From positions 250,284 through 314,283 of the forward strand of contig JAXLYI010000006.1 in NCBI GenBank assembly GCA_046351555.1: 64,000 nucleotides of DNA, given 5' to 3'. A program made the translations under genes and the position numbers. Within the stretch, counting starts at the first letter, position 1. Every line of letters begins with the position of its first letter. This stretch comes from Polyangiales bacterium. Lineage in GTDB: Bacteria; Myxococcota_A; Polyangia; Polyangiales; Ga0077539. Shown piece after piece: positions 2,341 to 44,808 of this stretch. The notes under the pieces were generated by a model. It was given only the letters and a program-made list of their open reading frames with translations, ran no database searches and was not told the DNA's origin.

Positions 2341-3279
2341 GTGCAATCCCGGACGGTTGTCATTGAGTCCGCGCCCGCGGGGCGCGTAGCGTCCGCCGCC
2401 GTGGACCCACCGCTCCCGATCGAGGTGGCCGGCCTCGCCGTCGCGGTCGCCCCGGTGGCGGCCCTGCTGATGGCCTTCCGGCGGGCCGACGCGGCGCGCC
2501 CGGAGCCGAAGCGGGAGGTGTTCGCGACGATGGCGCTCGGCTTCGCGGCGTGCGTGCCGGCGGCCGCGCTGGAGGTGGCGGAGAAGCGCCTGCTCGGGAG
2601 CTGGGCGCTGGCGGGCGGGCGCTTCCTCGACGCCTACCTCGTGGCCGCGCTCACCGAGGAGGGCGCCAAGCTCCTGGTGGTGCTCGCGTGGCCCTGGCGC
2701 CGGGGCTTCGACGAGGTGATGGACGGGATCCTCTTCACCGCCGCGGCCTCCCTCGGCTTCGGCCTGCTCGAGAACCTCATCTACGTCGACGCGCGCTTCG
2801 CCTCGCTCTTCTGCGCGGTGCCGGGCATCGACGCGCTCTGCAGCGAGCACGGCGCCGCGGGCACGCTCGAGGGCGTGGTGCTCGGCGTGGTGCGCGCGGT
2901 GACGGCCGTCCCGATGCACGCGGTCGCGTCGGGCATCATGGGCTACTACCTCGGGCGCGCGCGCTTCCACGACTGGAGCCCCGCGGCCGACGTCTTCGAC
3001 GACCTCCCCGAGCTCCTGCCCGCGTGGGTGCCGCGCAAGGTGGCGTGGGCGCTCTTCGGCCTCGCGGCCGCGGTCGCGGTGCACGGCACCTACGACTGGG
3101 CGGTGTTCGCGATGGGCACGCGGCCCGTGATCTTCCTCGTGCTCCCGACGATGCTCCTCGTGTCGGGCTATGCGCTCACGCGGCTCATGCGGCACGCGCT
3201 CGCGATCGACGACGAGCGCCTCGGGCCGGGGCACAAGGCCGCGCCCACCGGCACCCACACCGCCCCCGACAGCCCATGA
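2341..3279 (+). CDS. PrsW-family intramembrane metalloprotease
   Basis: Polytopic membrane protein. It carries an EEGAK-type motif and the FTAAASLGFGLLEN segment typical of the PrsW/CAAX-like protease family. It is divergent from the helicase. Confidence 0.65.
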   Translation: MQSRTVVIESAPAGRVASAAVDPPLPIEVAGLAVAVAPVAALLMAFRRADAARPEPKREVFATMALGFAACVPAAALEVAEKRLLGSWALAGGRFLDAYLVAALTEEGAKLLVVLAWPWRRGFDEVMDGILFTAAASLGFGLLENLIYVDARFASLFCAVPGIDALCSEHGAAGTLEGVVLGVVRAVTAVPMHAVASGIMGYYLGRARFHDWSPAADVFDDLPELLPAWVPRKVAWALFGLAAAVAVHGTYDWAVFAMGTRPVIFLVLPTMLLVSGYALTRLMRHALAIDDERLGPGHKAAPTGTHTAPDSP

Positions 3280-3309
3280 AACAAGCGCTTTGCAGCGCCG
3301 TGCCCACCC

Positions 3310-5826
3310 TTGACCGCGCAACGCCGGCGTGAGACGCAGGGGATGCGCCGAATCGTCCGGCGGCTCTCCGTGACCGACGCCCCGAAGGAGACCACACACC
3401 CCGTGAACCAACGACGCACCCCCTGGCGCTCCGGCCTCGCGCGCGTCGCCGCGCTCTCGCTGCTCTCGACCACCGCGCTGGGGTCGGGCTGCATCGAGGG
3501 CAACATCGGCGAGCCGGGCGCGAGCTGCGAGTCGACGCGCGCCTACTTCCTCCGCGACGTGTGGGGCCCGGTGCTGGCCACCAAATGCGTCGGCTGCCAC
3601 ACGCCGGGCGGGCAGGCCGAGGGCCACGGCGCCCGCTTCATCCTGCTGCCGGCGTCGTTCCCCGACTTCGCCGACGCCAACCTCGCGAGCGTGATCGCGA
3701 TGGTGAACCAGAGCTACGCGACGGGCTCGGGGCAGACGGCGGCGATCCTGGCCAAGCCCCTGTCGATGGTGCAGCACGGCGGCGGCGCGGTGATCCACGA
3801 GGGCACGGCGGAGCACCGCGCGCTCGAGGGCCTCGTCGAGCGGCTGCAGAGCGAGGACGACGCGACCGCGTGCCGGGACTTCGGCTCGGTGGCGGCGCCG
3901 TCGGGCGTGGTGATGCTCGACTGGCGGCAGACGCTGCGCAAGGCGTCGCTCGACATGCTCGGGCGGCTGCCGACGGAGGCCGAGCTGGCCCGCGCGGGCG
4001 CCGGCGAGCAGGGCTTCGAGCAGGCCGCCCTCGCGATGTTCGAGGACCCGGCCTTCTACCAGCGGTGGCGCACGGCGTGGAACGACCTGATGCTCACCGA
4101 CCGCTACCTGACCAACGACGGGTGCACGCAGCCGGCGCTCAACCTCATCTCGGGCGACGACTTCCCCAACCGCGGGGCCTACGGCGGCGCGGCGTCGACG
4201 TCGGGCCTCGACTGCTGCGGGCGCGACCGCGACAACGCGATGTGCGGCGACGTGCGGGAGTTCTTCAAGCGCGCCAACAACGCGGTGGCGCAGGAGCCGG
4301 TCAACCTCTTCGACTACATCGTCCGCAACAACCGCCCGTTCTCGGAGATCCTGACGGCCGACTACGTGATGGTGAACGCGCCGTCGGCCAACGTGTACGG
4401 CGTGGGCGACCAGGTGCGCTTCGACTCGTACACGTCCAACGACGTGCTCCCCGCGCGCATCACCTACACGTGGCGGGAGTACCGCAACAACAACAACATG
4501 CGCGAGCTCGTGCGGGAGGAGCGCTCGGAGTACCCCCACGCGGGCGTGCTGACGACGCCGGCCTTCCTCGCGCGGTACCCCACCACGGAGACCAACCGCA
4601 ACCGCCACCGCGCGCGCATCGTCCAGTCGTACTTCCTCGGGACGGACATCCTGCGCGTGGGCGAGCGCCCGCTCGACCCGACGGCGAGCGAGGCCCTGGT
4701 GCAGACGCCGACGCTCAACTACGCGCCCTGCGTCACCTGCCACCGGATGAACGACCCGATCGCGGGCGCCTTCCGCGCCTTCCCGCCGAGCAACGTCCCC
4801 GGGCGCTACCGGGCGAGCGCGACGTGGTACGCCGACATGTTCCCGCCGGGCTTCTCGGGGGAGAACATGCCGGCGTCGAGCTACTCGGCGGGCGTGCGGT
4901 GGCTGGCGCAGCGGGTGGTGTCCGACCCGCGCTTCGCGATGTCGACGGTGCGCTTCATCTACAAGTCGCTGACGGGCCGCGAGCCGCTGGTGTACCCGAC
5001 CGACACCGCCGACCCCCTCTACGCCGCCCGCGCCTCCGCGTGGAACGAGCAGGACCGCGCCCTCCGCGCCATCGCCCGCCGCCTCACCGCCTCCAACATG
5101 AACTTCAAGGCGGCCCTGGTGGAGATGCTCAAGTCCCCGCTCTACCGCGCCACCGCCGCCGTCGGCGTGACCGACCTCGCCGGGCGCACCGCCCACGCGG
5201 GCATCGGCACCGCGATGCTGCTCACCCCCGAGCTGCTCGACCGGCGCATCCGCGCGATCACGGGCTTCACCTGGTCGAAGACGCCGGGCCGCAACGACTC
5301 CTGGCTGCTCAACGACTTCTACTACCCGTACGGCGGCATCAACTCCGACACGATCGTGCGGCGCGCCACCGACCCGAGCGGGGTGATCACGGGCATCGCG
5401 CACCGCATGGCGACCGAGGTCGCGTGCCGCGCGACGGCCTGGGACTTCTCCTTCCCGCAGGCCGACCGGCGCTTCTTCCGCCACGTGCGCATCGACACGG
5501 TGCCCGAGTCGGGCGGCCAGCCGGTGCCCGGCAGCGTCGCGCAGATCCGGCAGAACATCGCGTGGCTGCACGAGGCGATCCTCGGCGAGCGGCTCTCGGT
5601 CGACGACCCCGAGGTGACGCGCACCTACGGCCTCTTCGCCGAGACGTGGCGCGAGACGAGCCAGACGAACTTCCTGCCCGACCCGTGCCGCGCGCAGGGC
5701 TCGCCGGTCGACGGCGTGCGGCTGCCGATGGAGCGGATGATCGTCGCCGACCCCAACGGCACCGTGCGCGCGTGGATGACCGTGCTCACGTACCTCTTCT
5801 CGGACCACCGCTTCCTGTACCAGTGA
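3310..5826 (+). CDS. Secreted DUF1592/DUF1588-family protein with two c-type heme CxxCH motifs
   Basis: N-terminal signal/lipobox (LLSTTALGSGC). CxxCH motifs at CVGCH and CVTCH. About 830 aa. This is the architecture of planctomycete/myxobacterial PSCyt/DUF1592-type proteins. The true start may instead be 3343 or 3403. Confidence 0.6.
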   Translation: MTAQRRRETQGMRRIVRRLSVTDAPKETTHPVNQRRTPWRSGLARVAALSLLSTTALGSGCIEGNIGEPGASCESTRAYFLRDVWGPVLATKCVGCHTPGGQAEGHGARFILLPASFPDFADANLASVIAMVNQSYATGSGQTAAILAKPLSMVQHGGGAVIHEGTAEHRALEGLVERLQSEDDATACRDFGSVAAPSGVVMLDWRQTLRKASLDMLGRLPTEAELARAGAGEQGFEQAALAMFEDPAFYQRWRTAWNDLMLTDRYLTNDGCTQPALNLISGDDFPNRGAYGGAASTSGLDCCGRDRDNAMCGDVREFFKRANNAVAQEPVNLFDYIVRNNRPFSEILTADYVMVNAPSANVYGVGDQVRFDSYTSNDVLPARITYTWREYRNNNNMRELVREERSEYPHAGVLTTPAFLARYPTTETNRNRHRARIVQSYFLGTDILRVGERPLDPTASEALVQTPTLNYAPCVTCHRMNDPIAGAFRAFPPSNVPGRYRASATWYADMFPPGFSGENMPASSYSAGVRWLAQRVVSDPRFAMSTVRFIYKSLTGREPLVYPTDTADPLYAARASAWNEQDRALRAIARRLTASNMNFKAALVEMLKSPLYRATAAVGVTDLAGRTAHAGIGTAMLLTPELLDRRIRAITGFTWSKTPGRNDSWLLNDFYYPYGGINSDTIVRRATDPSGVITGIAHRMATEVACRATAWDFSFPQADRRFFRHVRIDTVPESGGQPVPGSVAQIRQNIAWLHEAILGERLSVDDPEVTRTYGLFAETWRETSQTNFLPDPCRAQGSPVDGVRLPMERMIVADPNGTVRAWMTVLTYLFSDHRFLYQ

Positions 5827-35573: not shown

Positions 35574-36872
35574 ATGCGATGCACCCACTGGCTCCTCGGC
35601 GCGCCGCTCCTCCTCGCGGCGTGCAGCGACGAGGCCGCGCCCGCCCCCGCGCCCGCCGGCCCCCGCGCCCGCACCAACATCCAGCACGTGGTGGTGGTCT
35701 GGCAGGAGAACCACACCTTCGACAACTACTTCGGGCGCTACTGCACCGCGGCGCCCGGCTCCAACCCCGCGTGCACCGAGGGCCCCGCGTGCTGCGAGGC
35801 CGCGCCGGCGCGCGAGGCGTCGGGCGCCGCGCCGATCGCCCTCGACGACGCCAGCAACGCCCGCCGCGACCCCGACCACAGCCGCGCCTGCGAGTCGCAG
35901 CAGGTCAACGGCGGCGCGATGGACCGCTTCGTCGCGGGCGCCGCGGTGCCCGGGTGCAGCGACCCGGGCAACTTCGCGGTGGCCGCGCCCGAGGCGGTGG
36001 CGGCGTACCACGCTTTCGCGCGGGAGGGCGCGCTGGCCGACCGGTACTTCCAGCCCGAGGTGGGGTCGACCTCCGCCAACGACATGCACCTCGCGGTGGC
36101 GCGCCACGTCTTCGACGACAACACCGTCGCGCCGGAGGCCGACCACGCCGAGTGCAACAGCCTCTCGCCGCGGATGCGCCTCACGGGCCGCACGGTGGCC
36201 GACGTGGTGCTCGACGCGGGCTTCACCTTCGCGACGTACATCGAGGGCTACGCGGCCGCGCGGGCGTCGCTGCCCGACTGCGCCCAGGCGCCCGACGAGT
36301 GCCCGGCCCACCGCAACATCTACCCCTGCACCTACGACCCGTCGGACATCCCCTTCGCGTACTACGGCCGCTTCGCCGACAACCCGACGTACATGCGCGA
36401 CCACGGGCAGCTCGCCCGCGACGTCGCGGCCGGGGCGCTCCCGCACGTGTCGTATGTGAAGGCGATCGGGTACCGCACCGAGCACCCGGGCTACGGCACC
36501 ACGATCGGCGACGGGATGCGCTTCGTGTCGAGCCTCGTCTCGCTCATCCGCGGGTCGCGGTACGCCAACGACACGCTGATCCTGCTGACGTGGGACGAGG
36601 GCGGCGGCTACTACGACCACGTCGCGCCGCCGGGGCGCAGCGCGGTCGACATGCAGGAGTACGGCACGCGCGTCCCGCTGGTCGCGATCGGCCGCTTCGC
36701 GCGGCGCAACCGCGTCTCGCACGTGACGATGGAGCACGCGTCGATCGTGAAGTTCATCGAGTTCAACTACACGGGGGCGACGGGGCAGCTCGGGGCGCGC
36801 GACGCGTCCGCGGCCAACCTCGGGAGCCTGCTCGACCCCGCCGCCACCGGGACCGCCGTCCCCGAGCGCTGA
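35574..36872 (+). CDS. Phosphoesterase-family protein (phospholipase C / acid phosphatase AcpA-like)
   Basis: Lipobox LLAACSD. Signature VVVWQENHTFDNYFG. C-terminal TWDEGGGYYDHV. Confidence 0.75.
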   Translation: MRCTHWLLGAPLLLAACSDEAAPAPAPAGPRARTNIQHVVVVWQENHTFDNYFGRYCTAAPGSNPACTEGPACCEAAPAREASGAAPIALDDASNARRDPDHSRACESQQVNGGAMDRFVAGAAVPGCSDPGNFAVAAPEAVAAYHAFAREGALADRYFQPEVGSTSANDMHLAVARHVFDDNTVAPEADHAECNSLSPRMRLTGRTVADVVLDAGFTFATYIEGYAAARASLPDCAQAPDECPAHRNIYPCTYDPSDIPFAYYGRFADNPTYMRDHGQLARDVAAGALPHVSYVKAIGYRTEHPGYGTTIGDGMRFVSSLVSLIRGSRYANDTLILLTWDEGGGYYDHVAPPGRSAVDMQEYGTRVPLVAIGRFARRNRVSHVTMEHASIVKFIEFNYTGATGQLGARDASAANLGSLLDPAATGTAVPER

Positions 36873-37772
36873 CTACGCCTCGGGGTCGCCCTCGCGCAGC
36901 GCGGCCACCGCGGCGGCGACGGCCCCGGGGCGCGGGAGCCCGGCGTTGACGAGGGCCTTGCTGAAGGCCGACGCCGAGGCGAAGCCCATCGCGCGGCCCA
37001 CCGCCTCGGCCCCCGCGCCGGGCGCCGTCATGAAGCCCGCGCCGAGCAGGAGCCGCCGGCGGTTGCGCGCGTCGATCCAGCCCTCGGCGTTGAAGCCGAA
37101 GCGCTGGTGGAACTCCACCACCACGCGCTGGAAGTGCCGCACCGAGAGCCCCATCTGCGACTCGACGGAGCCCTTGAGGCGCTCGGACGCGAGGTCGGAC
37201 AGCAGCCGGTCGAGCGCGTCGCTGAGCCGCTGGAGCTGCGGGTCGTCGGCGCCGTCGAACGCCCCCGCGAGGCGCCCCACCGGGAGCCCCTGCGCGCCGA
37301 GCACCTCGCCCCAGGCGTCGAGCGCGCCGTCGTCGCGGCGCCTCTCGCGCACGGCGTCGAAGGCCGCATGGGCCGCGTCGAGGTCGCGCGCGGCGAGGCG
37401 CAGGGGCCGCGCGCGGTCGGGCGGCGCGGCGTGGCGGGCGGCGTCGCACTCGCACACGAGGCTGGCGTAGCGCGCGCCCTCCTGGCGCATCACCACGGCG
37501 GCCTTCTGGGGCATCGCCAGCGCGTCGCCGGGCGCGAGCCAGTGGTGCGCGCCGTCGAGCGAGACGCGCGCCCGCCCGTCGAGCACCACCGTGACGACCG
37601 GCCGCGCGAGGTGCCCGCGCCGCGCGAAGGCGCGCAGCGAGAGGGCGTCTTCCGAGGTGACCGCGGCGTTGTCGACCGCGTGAAGACGCGCCTCGGCGCT
37701 CACCAGAGCCGCGGTGGAGAAGCGGGCGCCGAGCGACTCGATGGCGGTGGTGCGGGTCGACCAGATCGGCAT
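36873..37772 (-). CDS. AraC-family transcriptional regulator
   Basis: C-terminal AraC HTH (MGFASASAFSKA). Confidence 0.75.
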   Translation of the reverse strand: MPIWSTRTTAIESLGARFSTAALVSAEARLHAVDNAAVTSEDALSLRAFARRGHLARPVVTVVLDGRARVSLDGAHHWLAPGDALAMPQKAAVVMRQEGARYASLVCECDAARHAAPPDRARPLRLAARDLDAAHAAFDAVRERRRDDGALDAWGEVLGAQGLPVGRLAGAFDGADDPQLQRLSDALDRLLSDLASERLKGSVESQMGLSVRHFQRVVVEFHQRFGFNAEGWIDARNRRRLLLGAGFMTAPGAGAEAVGRAMGFASASAFSKALVNAGLPRPGAVAAAVAALREGDPEA

Positions 37773-37854
37773 CGCGGGCGCAGGTGCCCGGGAGCCTATC
37801 GCGGGGTGACGGTTCTCCGCGACGCGGAACGGGCGCGACGCCGCGCCGCGCGGG

Positions 37855-39063
37855 TCACGGGTGGTGGTACCAGTACGCCCCCATCGGGAGGGCGGCGTAC
37901 GCGCCGGGGGGCATGTTGTCGGTGGAGCTGGTGACCGCGACCACGCGGCGGTTGGCGCCCGTCGCGGCGGGGACGTTGGTGAACTGGATCCCCGTGAGCG
38001 TGGGGAAGGTGAAGCGCATCGGCTCGCTCACGTCGGTGAGGTTGATCGGCGCGCGGTAGAAGGTCGACGGCGTGGTGCTCGGCTCCTCGAGCTCGCCGCC
38101 GAGGGCGCGCGCGATCACCGTGCCCGTCATCGACGAGGCCGAGACGTGGTTGTGGAAGGACACCCCCCGCCACGCGCAGCCCGCGCCGGCGCAGTCGAAG
38201 GTGACGCCCGGCTCCACGACGAGCCCCGCGGTGTTGTCGTCGGAGCCGCCGACCGAGACGCTCTCGTCGGGCGCGATGAGGACGCGGTTGGGCCCGGCGA
38301 TGGTCGTCGTCGCGCGGGTGACGTTGAGCGACCCGAGCACGTGGATGGGCACGGGCTGCGGCCGGACGGTACCGCCGGCGGCGATGGCCCCGCCCTCCAC
38401 CAGGATCTCGCGCGCCATGCCCGCGGCGTCGACGGTGATCGCGGGGAGCTCGACGAGGCGCTCCTGGCGGAGGTGGACGGCGGCGAGCGCGGGCGACTCG
38501 ACGCGCACGCCGGCCGACGCCGGGGCCAGCGGGCCGAACACCTCGAGCCCGTGCCCGCGGCTCTGCGAGAACACCACGTCGTCGAGCAGCAGGGCGGTGC
38601 TGGCGTTGTGCTGGAGGAGCCCCTCGCCGTGGTCGCCGCCGCCGGAGACGCGGACGTGGTGGAGCTCGAGGCGCGCCGGCGCCTGGTCGCTGCCGCTGTC
38701 GGCGGTGGTGACGACGCGCCAGGGCGCCGCGCCCTTCGCGCGCAGCACGACGGGGGCCTGCGCGGTCCCCTGCGCGACGAGCCCGCCGGGGCCGTTGACG
38801 TGGAGGCTGGTGCCGGGCGCGAACTCGATCGCCACGCCGGCCTCGATGGTGAGGCCGCCGCTGAAACTCGTCTCGACGCTGAGGTCGTAGGGCGAGCACG
38901 CGGCGGTCAGGGTGACGGGGTTGCTGCCGCCGAGCATCGCGAGGTCGCGGGGGGTCGTGCACGTGCCGCCGGGGTCGCCGCAGCCGACGGCGAGGGGCGC
39001 GAGCGCGAGGGCGAACAGCGGGAGCGAGCGGGGCGGGAAGGTCTGCTTCATCGGGTGCCTCAT
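37855..39063 (-). CDS. Lipoprotein, probable right-handed beta-helix
   Basis: Lipobox LAVGCG. Repetitive G/V/A-rich turns typical of pectate-lyase-like beta-helix. Overlaps the upstream gene by 4 nt. Confidence 0.5.
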   Translation of the reverse strand: MRHPMKQTFPPRSLPLFALALAPLAVGCGDPGGTCTTPRDLAMLGGSNPVTLTAACSPYDLSVETSFSGGLTIEAGVAIEFAPGTSLHVNGPGGLVAQGTAQAPVVLRAKGAAPWRVVTTADSGSDQAPARLELHHVRVSGGGDHGEGLLQHNASTALLLDDVVFSQSRGHGLEVFGPLAPASAGVRVESPALAAVHLRQERLVELPAITVDAAGMAREILVEGGAIAAGGTVRPQPVPIHVLGSLNVTRATTTIAGPNRVLIAPDESVSVGGSDDNTAGLVVEPGVTFDCAGAGCAWRGVSFHNHVSASSMTGTVIARALGGELEEPSTTPSTFYRAPINLTDVSEPMRFTFPTLTGIQFTNVPAATGANRRVVAVTSSTDNMPPGAYAALPMGAYWYHHP

Positions 39064-39866
39064 GCCCCGGATGTACGGACCTCCGCGCGCAGACCCGCCA
39101 TGTCATTTTCGGACGTCGCGCCCGCCACGAGGCGGCGCGCCGAACGAGCGGTCACGCGCGCGAGCGCGGCGGCCCAGTTGGTCGCGGTGAGCGGCACGAG
39201 GCCGAGCACGAACTCGCCGTTCACGTGGCCCGGGTTGATGCGGGCGTAGAAGGCGACGTCGGGGTCGCGCAGGGCCTCGGGCTCGATCGCGACGTTGCCG
39301 TCGACGTACACGAGGTCGGCGTAGGGGTTCGCGCCCGCCGACGGCTTGTCCATCGCGTCGGTCACAGAGGCGAGGAGCGCGCGCTCGCGCGCGGGCGGGG
39401 ACGCGTCGGGGCGGGGCCAGTACTCCGCGAAGTTGCGCGGCATCAGCAGGTAGCTCTTGTACGAGCTCGCCGCGAAGAGCCAGTAGACGCGGCGCCCCGG
39501 GTGGGCTCGGCGCTCGCGGAGGTAGTAGCGGAAGCCCACGCGCTGGATGACGTTGCGCCCGCGCAGCGCGGGCAGGAGGCACACGCGGCCGGTGAAGATC
39601 AGCGTGTGCGGGCGGCCCTGCCACTCGGGGCGGAAGACGCGCACGCCGCCGAAGCCGACGACGGCGCCCGCCTGCGACACGACGAAGACCTCGTCCATCG
39701 CGCGCAGCCCCTCGGCCATCACCTCGCGCGTGGTGCGGGCCACCGTGCGGAAGACCTCCCACAGCGCGTCGAGCTCGCCGTCGGTGAGCGCGTCCGCGCG
39801 CCGGTACTCGATGTGGAACGGCGCGGCGGCGGCGTGGCGGGGGGCGACCGTGATGGAGGGCGTCAT
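39060..39866 (-). CDS. Hypothetical protein (possible acyltransferase-like fold)
   Basis: Real-looking composition from MTPSITV. The N-terminal part of the listed 554-aa ORF is junk. It heads an ATGA-coupled operon and is divergent from the RNA ligase. Confidence 0.4.
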   Translation of the reverse strand: MTPSITVAPRHAAAAPFHIEYRRADALTDGELDALWEVFRTVARTTREVMAEGLRAMDEVFVVSQAGAVVGFGGVRVFRPEWQGRPHTLIFTGRVCLLPALRGRNVIQRVGFRYYLRERRAHPGRRVYWLFAASSYKSYLLMPRNFAEYWPRPDASPPARERALLASVTDAMDKPSAGANPYADLVYVDGNVAIEPEALRDPDVAFYARINPGHVNGEFVLGLVPLTATNWAAALARVTARSARRLVAGATSENDMAGLRAEVRTSGA

Positions 39867-40100
39867 CGTCCGCGACGCAGTGCAGCCGCGGTGCCGTACG
39901 CGTTTCCGCGGGAGATGCGGGGCTCGCGCGTGCCGCGAGGGCGCGTCGGCCTCGTGGCGCGTCCGACACGGCGTGGCGCCGGCGCGACGCCCCCAGGGTC
40001 CGTGCGTGCTGACGCGCTCCGCCCCGCGCGTTGCCCCGCGGCGCGCCGCTGCTACCCTGCGCGCCCCTCCATCCCCTCGCGCTGCCCCGAGGCGCCCGCC

Positions 40101-40772
40101 ATGAGCCCCACCGACGAAGCCCCGCGCCGCCCCGACGGGCGCGTGAAATACCCCCGCACGCACCACCTCCCGTGGAGCCCCGGGCGCACGAGCGACGACC
40201 GCGTCCTCGAGTCGCTCGCGGGCTTCGAAGGCCAGGACGTCGTCGTCACCGCGAAGATGGACGGCGAGAACACCACGCTCATGCGCTCGTGCCTCCACGC
40301 GCGCTCGCTCGACTGGGAGCCGCACCCGTCGCGCACGATGATCAAGGCGCTCCACGCGCGCGTCGCCGACGACATCCCCGAGGGGTGGCGGCTCTGCGGC
40401 GAGAACCTCCAGGCCGTCCACTCGATCCGCTACGCGAACCTCCCCGACGTGTTCCTGCTGTTCTCCGTGTGGGACGAGAAGAACTGGTGCCTCTCGTGGG
40501 GCGAGACGCTCGACTGGGCCTCGCTGCTCGACCTCGCCACCGTGCCCGTGCTCTACCGCGGCCCGTGGGACGAAGACCTCGTGCGCGGGCTCTACACCCC
40601 GACGCTCGACGGCGACGCGTGCGAGGGCTACGTCGTCCGCACGAGCGAGGGCTTCCCCTACGCGGACTTCAAGCGCCGCGTGGGCAAGTACGTGCGCGCC
40701 CACCACGTGCAGACCGACCAGCACTGGATGCGCCGGGCCGTCGAGCTCAACGGGATCGTCAGGAAGCGGTAG
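40101..40772 (+). CDS. ATP-dependent RNA ligase family protein (Rnl2/PF09414-like nucleotidyltransferase)
   Basis: N-terminal KYPRTHHLPWS. KxDG adenylylation motif TAKMDGEN. About 223 aa. Confidence 0.6.
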   Translation: MSPTDEAPRRPDGRVKYPRTHHLPWSPGRTSDDRVLESLAGFEGQDVVVTAKMDGENTTLMRSCLHARSLDWEPHPSRTMIKALHARVADDIPEGWRLCGENLQAVHSIRYANLPDVFLLFSVWDEKNWCLSWGETLDWASLLDLATVPVLYRGPWDEDLVRGLYTPTLDGDACEGYVVRTSEGFPYADFKRRVGKYVRAHHVQTDQHWMRRAVELNGIVRKR

Positions 40773-40808: not shown

Positions 40809-41126
40809 TCACTCGACCGGCGAGGCGAGCCCGCCGCTGCGCGGGATCGGGATCTGCGGCGTGGGGCCGGCGAGCTGGAGATCGCGGGCCGGGAGCGCGG
40901 GCTCGGGCAGGGGGATGCCCTCGCGCGTGCCCTCGGGGACGCGCACGGCGTCGACCGCGGCGGGGAGGCTCGCGCGGACGTCGTGCTCGTGGCCCGACGC
41001 GACGGCGACGAGGCCGCTCCGCGTGGTGGCGAACACCGGGGACGCCGTCGTCACGGAGGAGGAGGCGCAGCCCGTGAGCCAGGCGCCGAGCGCGGAGGCG
41101 AGGAGCAGGGCGGACAGTCGCTTCAT
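40809..41126 (-). CDS. Small lipoprotein
   Basis: MKRLSALLLASALGAWLTGC lipobox. ATG overlaps the stop of the upstream regulator gene. Confidence 0.4.
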   Translation of the reverse strand: MKRLSALLLASALGAWLTGCASSSVTTASPVFATTRSGLVAVASGHEHDVRASLPAAVDAVRVPEGTREGIPLPEPALPARDLQLAGPTPQIPIPRSGGLASPVE

Positions 41127-44100
41127 GACTCGGGAGTATCGGTCGGATCGGACCCCCTGGCAAGGCCGTACTCCCGCACGAGCTGGGAGAGCCGCGGGCG
41201 CTTCATCCCGAGCAGCGCGGCGGCGCGGGTGATGTTGCCGCCGGCCTCGTCGAGGGCGCGCGCGATGCAGCCGCGCTCCACCTCGCGGCGCATGTCGAAG
41301 AGCGACACGCCGCCGTGCCGGATGCGGTCGTAGACGGCGTCGACCTCGTCGCGCGCGGCGGGCGCAGGCGCGGCGGGCGCGGTTGTCGAGGGCGCGAGTG
41401 TCATGGGCGCGCGCACCAGCTCGGGGAGGCCCTGGAGGTCGTCGGGGGCGATCTCGTCGCCGTCGGCGAAGAGGGCCGAGGCGCGCAGGACGTTCTCGAG
41501 CTCGCGGACGTTGCCCGGCCACGGGTGCTCGGCGAGCCGCCGCAGCGCCGCCGCGGTGAGCCGCCGGGGCGCCGCCTCCCCCGCGTCGCGCTCGAGGAAC
41601 CACGCCGCCAGCAGCGGCAGGTCTTCGAGGCGCTCGCGCAGCGGCGGGAGCTGGATGGTGAGCGACGAGAGCCGGAAGTAGAGGTCCTCGCGGAAAGTTC
41701 GGTCGCGAACCATCTGGGCGAGGTCGCGGTTGGTGGCGGCGATGATCCGCACGTCGACCTTGAGCGTCTCGTTGCCGCCGACGCGTTCGAAGGTGCGCTC
41801 CTGGAGCACGCGCAGCAGGGCGGCCTGGGTGGCCGGCGTCACGTCGCCGATCTCGTCGAGGAAGATCGTGCCGCCGTCGGCGAGTTCGAAGCGCCCGCGG
41901 CGGCGGCGGTCGGCGCCGGTGAAGGCCCCGCGCTCGTGGCCGAAGAGCTCCGAGAGCAGCACGCCCTCGGCCAGCGCCGCGCAGTTGACCTTCACCAGCG
42001 GCGCCGCCCGCCGGTGCGAGCCCTGGTGGAGCGCCTCGGCCACGCGCTCCTTGCCCGTGCCCGACTCGCCGTGCAGGAGCACCGTGACGTCCTGCGGCGC
42101 GACGCGCGCGATGCGTCGCCGCAGCTCGCGCATCGCCGCGCTCTCCCCGATGAGCCCGTGGCCCGTCGCGCGCACCGCCGCGGCCGGCGCGGGCCGCGGT
42201 CGCTCCGTCGGCGCCGCGCCCCCGGCGCCCTCCAGCCGCGCCGCGAGGAGCGCGCCGCCGCCGCGCGCGAGCTGCGCCCCGTACGACACCCGCAGCGCCT
42301 CGGGCACGCGCGCGAGGATCTCCTGCCGGAGCGCCTCGGCGAAGCCCGCCTGGCGCCGCGCGGCCGTCGGGTCGTCGCGGTCGAGCAGCGCCATCCCGAC
42401 GGCGACGTGGGCGCGGTAGCGGAGGTCGCGGTCGCTGGTGGCCTCGGCCAGCTCGAGGGCGCGGCGCGCGTGGGGAAGGCGTCCTCGCCGCGGCTGCGCG
42501 CGAGCTCGGCGGCGAGGAGCGCGCGCTCGACCCGCGCGGACGGGGCGCCGCCCTCCTCGGGCACGAAGGCGAGCTCGGCCTCGGCGCGCGGGAGGTCGCC
42601 GTCGACCAGGGCCGCGCGGGCGAGCAGGAGCCGCGCGTCGGCCTGCTGGAGCGCGTCGCCGACGGCGGCGAAGACCCCGAGCGCCTGGCCGAGCGAGGCG
42701 CGGGCGGCCTCGGTGCGCGCGTCGGCGAGCTCGACGCGGGCGCGGAGCATGAGGTTCTCCGCGGCGATGGGGCCGGTGAAGCCGCGGGCCACCTGGGCGG
42801 CGTACTCGCAGAGCCGCCGGGCGCGCGCCACCTCGCCGACGTGGGCGTAGAGCTCGCCGAGGTTGTGCGCGACGCGCGCGAGGAAGCGCCGGTTGCCCAC
42901 GCGCGTGAGGATCCCGAGGGCCTCCTGGTAGCGCTGGAGCGCGTCGCCGTAGCGGCCCTGGAGGTGCGCGACGACGGCCTCGTTCTCCCGCAGCACGCCG
43001 CGGAGCATCATCGAGCCGGCGCCGTCGGCCACCGCGCGCGCCTCGCCGAGCTGGCGGGCCGCCTCGTCGAGGTCGCCGCGCCAGATCGCCACCACGCCGA
43101 GGTTGATGAGCCCGCGCAGGATCTCCGTCCCCGCGCCCCGCGCCCGCGCCCGCTCCAACCCCTCGCGCGACCACTCCCACCCCGCGTCGAGCTCGCGCCG
43201 CGCGAGGAACACCTTCGTCATCGTGTTGCGCGCCCGCGTCGCCACCGGGTCGACGTCGCGCGACAGCGCGATCGCCTCCCGCGCGAGGCGCTCGGTCTCG
43301 TCGAGGCGGCCGCGAACGTACGAGAGCTCCGCGCGCAGCGCCGCGTTGGCCGCCCGCTGGGCGGTGTCGTCGTCGCGGGTGCGCGCGTCGGCCCGCCCGA
43401 GCGCCGCCTCGGCCGCGTCCCAGTCGCCCGCGCCGAGGGCGAGCGAGGCGTCGAGGCGCGGGAGCTCCGGGTCGTCGGGGGCGACGCGCTCGGCCGCGGC
43501 CACCACCGCGCGCGCCTCCGCGTGGGCCGCGATCGGGGGCGCCGCCGCGGCCGCGACGCGGGCGAGCTCGCGCGCGGTGTGGGGCGCGGCGTGCGGCGAG
43601 GCGAGGTGCGCGAGCGCGAGCGCCGACGCGGGCGCGTGACGTCGCAGGAGCGAGCGGGCAACGGCGACGGCCTCCGCAGCGGCCTCGGCGGGGCGGTCGC
43701 CGGCGAGTCGGTGGAGGACGGCTTCTTCGGGCGACGCGCGGCCCCAGGCGTCGAGCGCGACCCCGAGCGACTCGCGGAGGATCAGCAGCTCGCCCGCGTC
43801 GAGGCGCGCGAGGGCCGCCTCACCCTCGTCGTGGCGCGCGAGGCCCACCACCACGTCGCCCGCCGCCGGGTCGAGCGCGCGCCACGCCGTCGAGGCCGCG
43901 ATCAGCGTCGGGATCGCGCGGGTGACCGCCTGCGCGTCGACCCCGAGGGCCCCGGCCACCACGCCCGCGGGCAGCGGCCGGTCGGCGAGGCTCAGCGCGG
44001 CGAGCACCCGGCGCGGCAGCTCGCCGAGCTCGTCGAGGCGCGCGGCCACCTCGCTCTCGCGCGGCGGCGGCAGGCGCTCGAGCATCGCGAGGACGGCCGC

Positions 44101-44808
44101 GGGGTTGCCCGACGTCGCCGCGTGCAGGCGGGTGACGGCGGCCTCCGTGACGAGGATGCGCCGGACGCCGTCGGGCGAGAGGCCCTCGAGTTCGAAGCGC
44201 TCGGCGCGCGGGTGGTCGAGCGGGTCACCGAGATCGGCGGCTCGGATGCCCGCGACGAAGAGGGCCGCGGGCGCGCCGGGCGTGGGCTCGCCGGCGGGCC
44301 CGGCGGCGTCGAGGAGCGCGCGCACCAGGGCCCGCGTCGCGTCGTCGGCCCGCGACCAGCCGCGCAGGAGCACGAGCACCGGGCGCAGCCGGGCCACCGC
44401 GGCGAGCAGCCGGGCGACGGCCTCGGTGAAGCGGATCGCGGCCTCCTCGTCGCCGTCGTCGAGCGCGTCGCCCTCGCGGGCCCGCGCCGAGCGGGCGCCG
44501 ACCAGCGGGGCGAGGGCGTCGAGGTCGGCGGGCGAGAGGAGGTCCTGCGCGTCGCGGGCGCGCAGCCAGGCGAGGGCCTGCGCGGCGATCGGGACGAAGG
44601 GCGCGTAGGCCGCGTGCCGCACGCACCAGCCTTCGAGCGCGGGGAAGCCCGCCGCGCGGCACTGCTCGCGGAGCTCGTCGAGCAGGCGCGACTTGCCGAT
44701 GCCCGGGGGGCCGGTGACCGTCACCATCGACGCGCCGTTGGCCCCGGTGGCCTCGAGGCGCGAGGTGACCCACGCGAGCTCGCGCTCTCGTCCGACGCAG
44801 GCCGTCAT
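41123..44808 (-). CDS. Large AAA-ATPase/TPR/sigma-54 activator/HTH regulator with an apparent frameshift
   Basis: N-terminal Walker A VTGPPGIGKS and TPR-like repeats (938-aa ORF). C-terminal sigma-54 interaction domain (GESGTGKE, GAFTG, ESELFGHE-like) plus Fis-type HTH (685-aa ORF). The frames join if one C is added at the C4 run (+ strand G4 42473-42476). Confidence 0.65.

Follow-up and report, generated by a model that had tools for sequence, protein, structure and literature searches.

Small ligase-like proteins encoded beside the end-healing enzyme HD-Pnk are known from cassettes of Runella (PMC6097658) and Deinococcus (DR_B0098-B0100; PMC1997131). The Deinococcus radiodurans protein DR_B0100 (LigB/DdrP) forms a covalent AMP adduct at K40, and its K40A variant loses AMP labelling (PMC1997131). 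DR_B0100 ligated no DNA or RNA substrate, either alone or together with DR_B0098 and DR_B0099 (PMC1997131), and no sealing was observed in PMC5397189 either. As PMC6300522 recounts, Kota 2010 obtained DNA ligation by DR_B0100 only when DR_B0098 and PprA were present; PMC6300522 also describes the operon as radiation-induced and the DR_B0100 mutant phenotypes as contradictory, radiation-sensitive in one case and radiation-resistant in the other. The Runella ligase-like protein encoded beside HD-Pnk likewise forms an enzyme-AMP adduct (E-AMP) and seals none of the tested 3'-OH/5'-PO4 substrates (PMC6097658), and jumbo phages encode 'Rnl2 family' ligases with an N-terminal HNH fusion (Iyer et al. 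2021; PMC7824862). Here, we analyzed a related gene located at positions 40101-40772 on the plus strand of a 64,000-nucleotide stretch of Polyangiales DNA (hereafter the window; all results for the window refer to these 64 kb of the 534-kb contig JAXLYI010000006.1). The combined data indicate that this gene probably encodes a solitary, minimal ATP-dependent polynucleotide ligase homolog of the DR_B0100 family, which consists of the adenylyltransferase domain alone and has lost an HNH domain.

The window has a G+C content of 76% and abundant long spurious open reading frames (ORFs), and real ORFs were picked by their codon-position G+C. With G+C fractions of 0.67, 0.46 and 0.98 at the first, second and third codon positions, the ligase ORF is coding. 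Its 223-residue product exactly matches NCBI record MFO0603745.1, which is annotated as 'RNA ligase family protein' and derives from a Polyangiales metagenome-assembled genome (MAG). It also matches positions 2-171 of the 171-position Pfam profile PF09414 (RNA_ligase) with an E-value of 8.1e-30 and 104.6 bits (cut-off 27), as well as PHROG 34045 (3.5e-68) and PHROG 24030 (7.8e-66). In the first-pass annotation of the window, this protein was described as an ATP-dependent RNA ligase-like nucleotidyltransferase with a KYPRTHHLPWS N-terminus and a KMDGEN motif. Both motifs are present exactly as claimed, at residues 16-26 and 52-57 respectively, and the assignment is borne out by the PF09414 match and by the predicted fold. 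A lack of motifs III-V had been set beforehand as the outcome that would speak against this assignment, and these motifs proved to be present and invariant in an alignment (A1) of 16 sequences, comprising the window ligase and 15 homologs with 56-90% identity. The features of the gene are as follows.

40101-40772, plus strand: coding sequence of the ligase homolog, 223 aa, with an ATG start (ORF, third-position G+C, PF09414, PHROG, AlphaFold2 fold)
40254-40271, plus strand: motif I, KMDGEN, with K52 as the predicted AMP-accepting lysine (K52, D54, G55 and E56 invariant)
40389-40406, plus strand: motif III, RLCGEN, including E101 (R97, C99, G100, E101 and N102 invariant)
40452-40472, plus strand: motif IIIa, FLLFSVW (F118, F121, S122 and W124 invariant)
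40623-40640, plus strand: motif IV, EGYVVR (E175, G176, Y177, V178 and R180 invariant)
40686-40709, plus strand: motif V region, KYVRAHHV (K196, V198, R199, H202 and V203 invariant)

With nucleotidyltransferase motifs I, III, IIIa, IV and V all present in order, the window protein is a member of the covalent nucleotidyltransferase superfamily, of the Rnl type (PF09414), and has the full motif set. Its AlphaFold2 model (predicted local distance difference test score, pLDDT, 86; predicted template modelling score, pTM, 0.85) has the adenylyltransferase fold. When this model was compared with the PDB by Foldseek, the best folds were Naegleria NgrRnl (Rnl5; 7e-6), T4 Rnl2 (1.4e-5), archaeal Rnl3 and fungal Trl1-LIG, with identities of 15-17% and template modelling (TM) scores of about 0.5. 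The top 37 matches were all RNA or tRNA ligases, except for one Aquifex entry labelled as a putative DNA ligase, and DNA ligases ranked far behind. Only this fold search was informative, since PDB searches by sequence, both with the single protein and with a profile, returned only spurious matches to fatty-acid-binding proteins. The Rnl5 proteins (DraRnl DR_B0094 and NgrRnl) provide the best structural match to the window adenylyltransferase domain (E=7e-6, TM ~0.53), but the window protein does not have the N-terminal OB domain that is their hallmark, and it scored 13.8 bits against the Rnl5 equivalog TIGR02306 (cut-off 151). T4 Rnl2 and kinetoplastid REL1 have PF09414, the adenylyltransferase fold and the motif set in common with the window protein, but the identity is only ~15-16%, there is no sequence-level PDB match, and the C-terminal helical domain of T4 Rnl2, which that enzyme needs for nick sealing, is absent. 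Indeed, only 15 residues precede the KYPRT motif, the C-terminus lies about 20 residues past motif V, and the model contains no extra domain there. The window protein thus lacks the accessory N- or C-terminal domains that define Rnl1-Rnl5.

Among the characterised proteins, DR_B0100 is a member of the same adenylyltransferase-domain-only family as the window ligase, because the primers used by Blasius et al. 2007 encode MRVKYP and VVTE-(K40A)-LDG (PMC1997131) and because, in both proteins, a spacing of 36 residues separates the nucleophilic lysine from the K of KYP, K40 corresponding to K52. The Deinococcus homologs in our survey loci (see below) read KYPRTPHLPWSPG...VVVTEKLDGEN and are 55-59% identical to the window protein. 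Like DR_B0100, the window protein falls in the range of ~205-225 aa, comprises the adenylyltransferase domain only and has the N-terminal (R)VKYPRT...PWSPG motif with the KxDGE nucleophile 36 residues further on. By homology to DR_B0100, and from its motifs and fold, it would be expected to self-adenylylate by forming covalent lysyl-AMP at K52. The Runella slithyformis 'LIG' protein probably belongs to the same family, judging from the identical gene arrangement in which the ligase ORF lies directly upstream of the HD-Pnk gene and overlaps it. What distinguishes the window gene is that the DR_B0100 and Runella LIG operons hold HD-Pnk (DR_B0098), and sometimes PARG or Tpt1, whereas the window gene has no such neighbour.

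This difference could be placed in the context of the whole family by a survey of one genome per GTDB species, which gave 80 loci with ligases of 48-60% identity, and in which all flanking ORFs were clustered. The loci came from Paenibacillus, Brevibacillus, Deinococcus, Enhygromyxa and other Myxococcota, Verrucomicrobiota, Planctomycetota, Cyanobacteria and gammaproteobacteria. The first-pass annotation had regarded the partners of such ligases as poorly defined, but in 73 of the 80 loci an end-healing fusion of an HD phosphoesterase and a P-loop kinase directly adjoins the ligase gene. In 40 loci (Bacillota), a fusion of about 320 aa consisting of an AAA_33 P-loop kinase and an HD domain (Pnk-HD) ends just upstream of the ligase, and in the other 33 loci (all other phyla, including eight Myxococcota) an HD plus AAA_33 protein of about 420 aa starts just downstream of it. 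According to Pfam, both types of neighbour consist of the same two domains in opposite order. The HD plus AAA_33 arrangement is that of HD-Pnk, whose end healing has been characterised for Runella and Deinococcus. HD-Pnk heals DNA as well as RNA ends. In 2017, Munir and Shuman reportedly traced HD-Pnk to 11 phyla and often found its gene sharing an operon with this putative ligase. The seven loci without either neighbour comprise four with HNH-fused ligases and three near the ends of short metagenomic contigs, and none of the 80 loci combined an HNH fusion with an HD-Pnk neighbour. This allowed us to distinguish three mutually exclusive ligase contexts: HD-Pnk downstream, Pnk-HD upstream, and an N-terminal HNH fusion without a healing neighbour. 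In the Deinococcus yunweiensis locus (L086), the gap between the ligase and HD-Pnk genes measures 840 bp and probably holds a DR_B0099-like PARG gene.

The window ligase is most closely related to the third of these types. A database search returned 5877 relatives, and most matches with 57-82% identity are about 340 aa in length and bear an HNH nuclease domain at the N-terminus, together with a conserved linker. This HNH-fused form corresponds to phrog_24030, which is named 'RNA ligase', and the standalone form to phrog_34045. Homologs are present in many jumbo phages (Caulobacter CcrSC-like phages, Salicola SCTP-2, Ralstonia RsoM2USA, Xanthomonas XacN1 and Agrobacterium Atu_ph07) and in huge metagenomic phages, and several of the metagenomic contexts resemble phage DNA in being densely packed with small unannotated ORFs. 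The HNH-fused proteins represent a second, largely phage-borne clade without an HD-Pnk or Pnk-HD partner. In a neighbour-joining (NJ) tree of 162 ligase domains, which carries no bootstrap and is indicative only, the window ligase lies inside this clade, unlike the HD-Pnk-linked DR_B0100 type; in the same tree, the HD-Pnk-linked and Pnk-HD-linked ligases largely form separate clusters. Its nearest neighbours, by the tree as well as by distances, are P0003, P0004, P0005 and P0006, all of which are HNH-fused. The ligase domains of the HNH fusions (PHROG 24030) are 60-88% identical to the window protein, whose 90%-identity cluster holds both 223-aa and 339/343-aa proteins. Moreover, in relatives with about 88% identity a 339-aa HNH-ligase is retained at the chromosomal locus of the window ligase, and the HNH-ligases P0123 and P0004, which are its nearest relatives, lie there. 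They carry an HNH domain plus linker of about 130 aa, and in its place the window protein has 13 new residues.

A comparison of the window with two related Polyangiales loci, L094 and L001, delimits the underlying rearrangement. L094 contains a gene for a deoxynucleoside kinase, a gene for a 339-aa HNH-ligase, and then a convergent 107-aa gene, a σ54 activator gene and a TetR gene. The downstream order of small gene, σ54 activator and TetR is the same in the window. L001 has the same flanks as L094, but its ligase is only 224 aa long and is 88% identical to the window ligase. By blastn, the homology between the window and L001 starts at 40096, which is 5 bp before the common new ATG, and the homology between the window and L094 starts only with the RVKYPRT codons at 40140. 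The spacer and the HNH region of L094, about 640 bp in all, are missing from L001 (blastn). Accordingly, the 13 N-terminal residues MSPTDEAPRRPDG stand in place of the HNH domain and linker of about 130 aa, and no HNH remnant was found by tblastn in any frame of the whole window. Upstream, both L001 and L094 carry the deoxynucleoside kinase gene and a gene for another GNAT protein, unlike the window, and the distance from the EF-G gene to the ligase downstream of it is 6.7 kb in L001 compared with 25 kb in the window. Two further features are relevant here.

40096-40140, plus strand: rearrangement scar (blastn breakpoints and alignment with the HNH-fused P0004 and P0123)
40809-41126, minus strand: conserved syntenic neighbour, 105 aa, convergent with the ligase (65% identity to L001 by tblastn; also in L094-L097)

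The 105-aa type of gene adjoins the ligase in every close relative, and its product has no Pfam or PADLOC match. Taken together, these comparisons suggest that the window copy descends from the clade of HNH-nuclease fusions often seen in jumbo phages, by way of a fixed ancestral Polyangiales locus with the gene order of L094 (deoxynucleoside kinase, 339-aa HNH-ligase, 107-aa gene, σ54 activator, TetR). A single deletion of about 640 bp, removing the spacer and the HNH region, probably occurred in the common ancestor of the window and L001 and created the new 13-residue N-terminus. A later swap of the upstream flank in the window lineage would then have placed an unrelated unit of GNAT-fold, lipoprotein and AraC-like genes beside the ligase. 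The ratio of nonsynonymous to synonymous substitution rates (dN/dS) of the window ligase is 0.22 versus L001 and 0.31 versus L094, and it is 0.09-0.10 in deeper comparisons with the 72%-identical L011. The ligase core is under purifying selection after the loss of the HNH domain.

We propose that the window protein would act as follows. In step 1, ATP-dependent self-adenylylation would take place at Lys52, as indicated by motifs I and III-V and the fold, and as shown for K40 of DR_B0100. In steps 2 and 3, by analogy with the superfamily, AMP would be transferred to a 5'-phosphate end, and attack by a 3'-OH would seal a break in RNA or an RNA/DNA hybrid. The 3'-OH strand would more likely be RNA than DNA, given that RNA ligases are the closest match in both sequence and fold. 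By tblastn with the partner proteins, no HD-Pnk or Pnk-HD was found in the whole 64 kb, and by Pfam none of the RNA-repair enzymes Pnkp, Hen1, RtcB, RtcA and RtcR was present among about 30 neighbouring proteins. This upholds the earlier description of the gene as standalone, with no adjacent Pnkp, Hen1 or RtcB partner. With neither a healing partner in these 64 kb nor a nuclease domain of its own, the protein would be limited to clean 3'-OH/5'-PO4 breaks unless healing enzymes from elsewhere in the genome assist it.

Several observations weigh against this interpretation. No family member has a demonstrated sealing substrate, so that for steps 2 and 3 the name 'ligase' derives from fold and motifs, and the sole report of ligation by DR_B0100, as cited in PMC6300522 (Kota 2010), concerns DNA and the joint presence of DR_B0098 and PprA. 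The window protein has neither the OB domain nor the C-terminal nucleic-acid-binding domain that other Rnl families need for sealing. The analysis covered 64 kb of the 534-kb contig, and a healing partner encoded elsewhere may act in trans. The placement in the HNH clade is only indicative, coming from a simple NJ tree that carries no bootstrap support. Lastly, the loss of the HNH domain and the somewhat higher dN/dS among the closest relatives could mean relaxed constraint.

The first-pass annotation had also drawn attention to a set of genes on the opposite strand, across a divergent spacer from the ligase.

39867-40100, strand not applicable: divergent spacer, 234 bp, non-coding (codon-position G+C 0.81/0.81/0.82)
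39060-39866, minus strand: 268-aa GNAT-fold protein (hypothetical protein U0324_11250), apparently not part of the ligase system (AlphaFold2/Foldseek)
37855-39063, minus strand: 402-aa predicted lipoprotein with the lipobox LAVGC (sequence)
36873-37772, minus strand: 299-aa protein with weak cupin and HTH_18 (AraC-like) signals (sub-threshold Pfam; 'hypothetical protein' at NCBI)

The spacer is regarded as non-coding because its G+C content is flat in all three codon positions, and the three minus-strand genes have third-position G+C fractions of 0.96-0.99. By blastn, the spacer showed no homology to L001 or L094, Rfam had no match in it, and a σ54 -24/-12 element (TGGC-N8-TGC) was not found in it, the counts of such elements across the window being those expected by chance. 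The 268-aa protein had been described as possibly acyltransferase-like, and this was correct: its AlphaFold2 model (pLDDT 87.6) has a GNAT fold, with AAC(2') and other GNAT enzymes as the top Foldseek matches, and a Pfam match was not found. The claim that the three genes form an ATGA-coupled operon of an unknown protein, a lipoprotein and an AraC regulator could be retained only in part. The TGA of the 268-aa gene does overlap the ATG of the lipoprotein gene as ATGA at 39060-39063 (tcat on the plus strand), but the third gene follows after a gap of 82 bp without such coupling. Likewise, the lipobox agrees with the predicted lipoprotein, which has no Pfam, NCBIfam, PHROG or PDB match that would bear out the beta-helix of the first-pass annotation, but the AraC assignment of the 299-aa protein comes from sub-threshold scores only (HTH_18, 19.5 bits with a cut-off of 33.6; Cupin_2, 16.1 bits with a cut-off of 27.2).

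The family of the 268-aa protein is rare, with 20 homologs in 5.8 billion proteins. A homolog with 78% identity is encoded beside YHYH/PQQ genes and one with 49% identity beside genes for a CDP-alcohol phosphatidyltransferase and for PEP-mutase/phosphonate biosynthesis, in both cases without a ligase (loci L100 and L101 were examined). The phosphonate and phosphatidyltransferase neighbours hint that this family may have a role in lipid head-group or phosphonate modification. A 95%-identical ortholog, P0136, has a C-terminal tail that corresponds to the antisense strand of the phosphoesterase gene at 35574-36872. This tail would imply a deletion of about 3 kb in that strain (window ~36200-39100), encompassing the lipoprotein and AraC-like genes, and this flank would therefore be structurally unstable as well.

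Other explanations for the ligase gene were considered. The protein might be a DNA-repair ligase that seals DNA breaks after damage, like D. radiodurans LigB/DdrP and possibly with accessory proteins. The radiation-induced DR_B0100 operon, and one study with DNA ligation (DR_B0098 plus PprA) and radiation sensitivity of the mutant (PMC6300522), are consistent with this idea, as is the healing of DNA ends by HD-Pnk. In another study, however, the mutant was radiation-resistant (PMC6300522), and two laboratories saw no sealing of DNA by pure protein (PMC6097658, PMC1997131). The nearest relatives of the window protein in sequence and fold are RNA ligases (PF09414; Rnl5, Rnl2, Rnl3), with DNA ligases scoring much worse. 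HNH (ββα-Me) nucleases cut DNA and leave 3'-OH/5'-PO4 ends, and the cuts made by the ancestral HNH fusion partner would be direct substrates for a ligase. On balance, we consider a function in DNA repair rather unlikely. That the gene is a decaying remnant, a non-functional leftover of a truncated phage-derived HNH-ligase on its way to becoming a pseudogene, is suggested by the deletion of the HNH domain and linker, the absence of a partner and of a conserved promoter region (homology starts 5 bp before the ATG), the dN/dS of 0.22-0.31 among the closest relatives compared with 0.09-0.10 in deeper comparisons, and the frameshift in the neighbouring σ54 activator gene. This is nevertheless unlikely: the ORF is intact and keeps every family-invariant residue, dN/dS is well under 1, and a standalone domain is usual both for phages (PHROG 34045) and for HD-Pnk cassettes. 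In addition, at least 10 distinct 223-aa variants with the same new N-terminus come from separate metagenomes and MAGs, which indicates that the short form has persisted and diversified. The protein could also be a self-adenylylating enzyme that transfers AMP or another nucleoside monophosphate (NMP) to a non-canonical acceptor (by 5'-adenylylation, a capping-like reaction, or transfer to a protein or small molecule) and seals nothing. This would agree with the robust step 1 and the steps 2-3 never seen on standard substrates in two family members, and with the lack of a nucleic-acid-clamping domain, but ligases use motifs III-V, and the conserved basic residues that follow motif V, to bind the 5'-phosphate of polynucleotides, and the coupling to a 5'-kinase/3'-phosphoesterase in 73 of 80 loci is understandable only with healed 5'-PO4/3'-OH ends as the substrate. 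We consider this very unlikely. With a similarly small probability, the near-identical 339-aa HNH-ligase and 223-aa HNH-less orthologs at one locus could reveal a family that reseals or adenylylates the specific 3'-OH/5'-PO4 cuts of its own HNH domain rather than general breaks. The HNH-less form would then have taken on a non-canonical, autonomous role, for instance by passing AMP to an unusual acceptor. If true, this would explain the lack of a sealing substrate for DR_B0100 and Runella LIG.

The remaining explanation is the link that the first-pass annotation had implied, namely that the ligase, the GNAT-fold protein, the lipoprotein and the AraC-like regulator form one RNA-repair or defence module. 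The ligase gene and the unit do adjoin each other across the 234-bp divergent spacer, and in L001 and L094 an Acetyltransf_3-type GNAT gene is found upstream of the ligase, at a distance of two to several genes. That GNAT protein is, however, not homologous to the 268-aa protein (no match by tblastn), the adjacency is unique to the window lineage, with a deoxynucleoside kinase gene upstream in L001 and L094, and the 78%- and 49%-identical homologs of the 268-aa protein occur in other contexts without a ligase. The strain of P0136 appears to have no lipoprotein or AraC-like genes. PADLOC had no match for the ligase, its HNH-fused ortholog or the proteins of the divergent genes, and the surroundings are ordinary chromosomal ones, so that the suggested association with defence did not hold either. 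These comparisons largely refute a functional module, which is extremely improbable; the supposed system of an orphan ligase and an unknown operon is instead a lineage-specific chance juxtaposition. The alternative named beforehand, a conserved housekeeping ortholog with unrelated neighbours, agrees in part with our findings, as the same locus is present in related Polyangiales and its upstream neighbours are unrelated or variable. The reading of the gene as a solitary minimal ligase homolog makes it an ordinary, already annotated gene from a known family rather than a novel system of RNA repair or defence. The gene itself is of little weight, since it is annotated and its family is known from Deinococcus LigB, HD-Pnk operons and the HNH-fused ligases of jumbo phages. 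The three exclusive contexts, together with a recent, clean HNH deletion that left a constrained core, may help to find the sealing substrate of the family.

A few candidates for regulation and partnership were rejected. RtcR-like regulation was dismissed because the neighbouring σ54 activator has AAA_16 and TPR domains and no CARF domain, there is no σ54 site and the upstream region is not conserved. The kinase of L001 was rejected as a polynucleotide-kinase partner because it is a deoxynucleoside kinase (PF01712, 1.6e-48), unlike the Pnk domains of HD-Pnk. The σ54 enhancer-binding gene of the window (41123-44808, minus strand; AAA_16, TPR, Sigma54_activat and HTH_8) is split into two overlapping ORFs. 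A frameshift at 42472-42475 causes the split: compared with the L001 ortholog, which is intact at 1223 aa, a C-run there is 1 nt shorter. The gene is either a pseudogene or the result of an assembly error. L094 has other 1-nt indels in its σ54 activator and deoxynucleoside kinase genes, which suggests an error-prone assembly there.

The idea that the 25-kb segment between the EF-G gene and the ligase is a prophage or island was likewise rejected, as it consists of ordinary chromosomal genes without tRNA, Rfam or phage hallmarks; Rfam and tRNA scans found nothing relevant. The genes at 15380-36872 of the window encode YqeY, a KaiC-like ATPase, a 3-hydroxyisobutyrate-dehydrogenase-like protein, a methyltransferase, the TRAP transporter proteins TAtT and DctP, a 1102-aa PAS/GAF hybrid histidine kinase, a WD40 protein and a PF04185 phosphoesterase. 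A pair of genes that is absent from the window lies between EF-G and the ligase in L001, where positions 3042-5005 encode an AAA_15/AAA_21 ATPase and an HNH protein with a Septu-like defence architecture.

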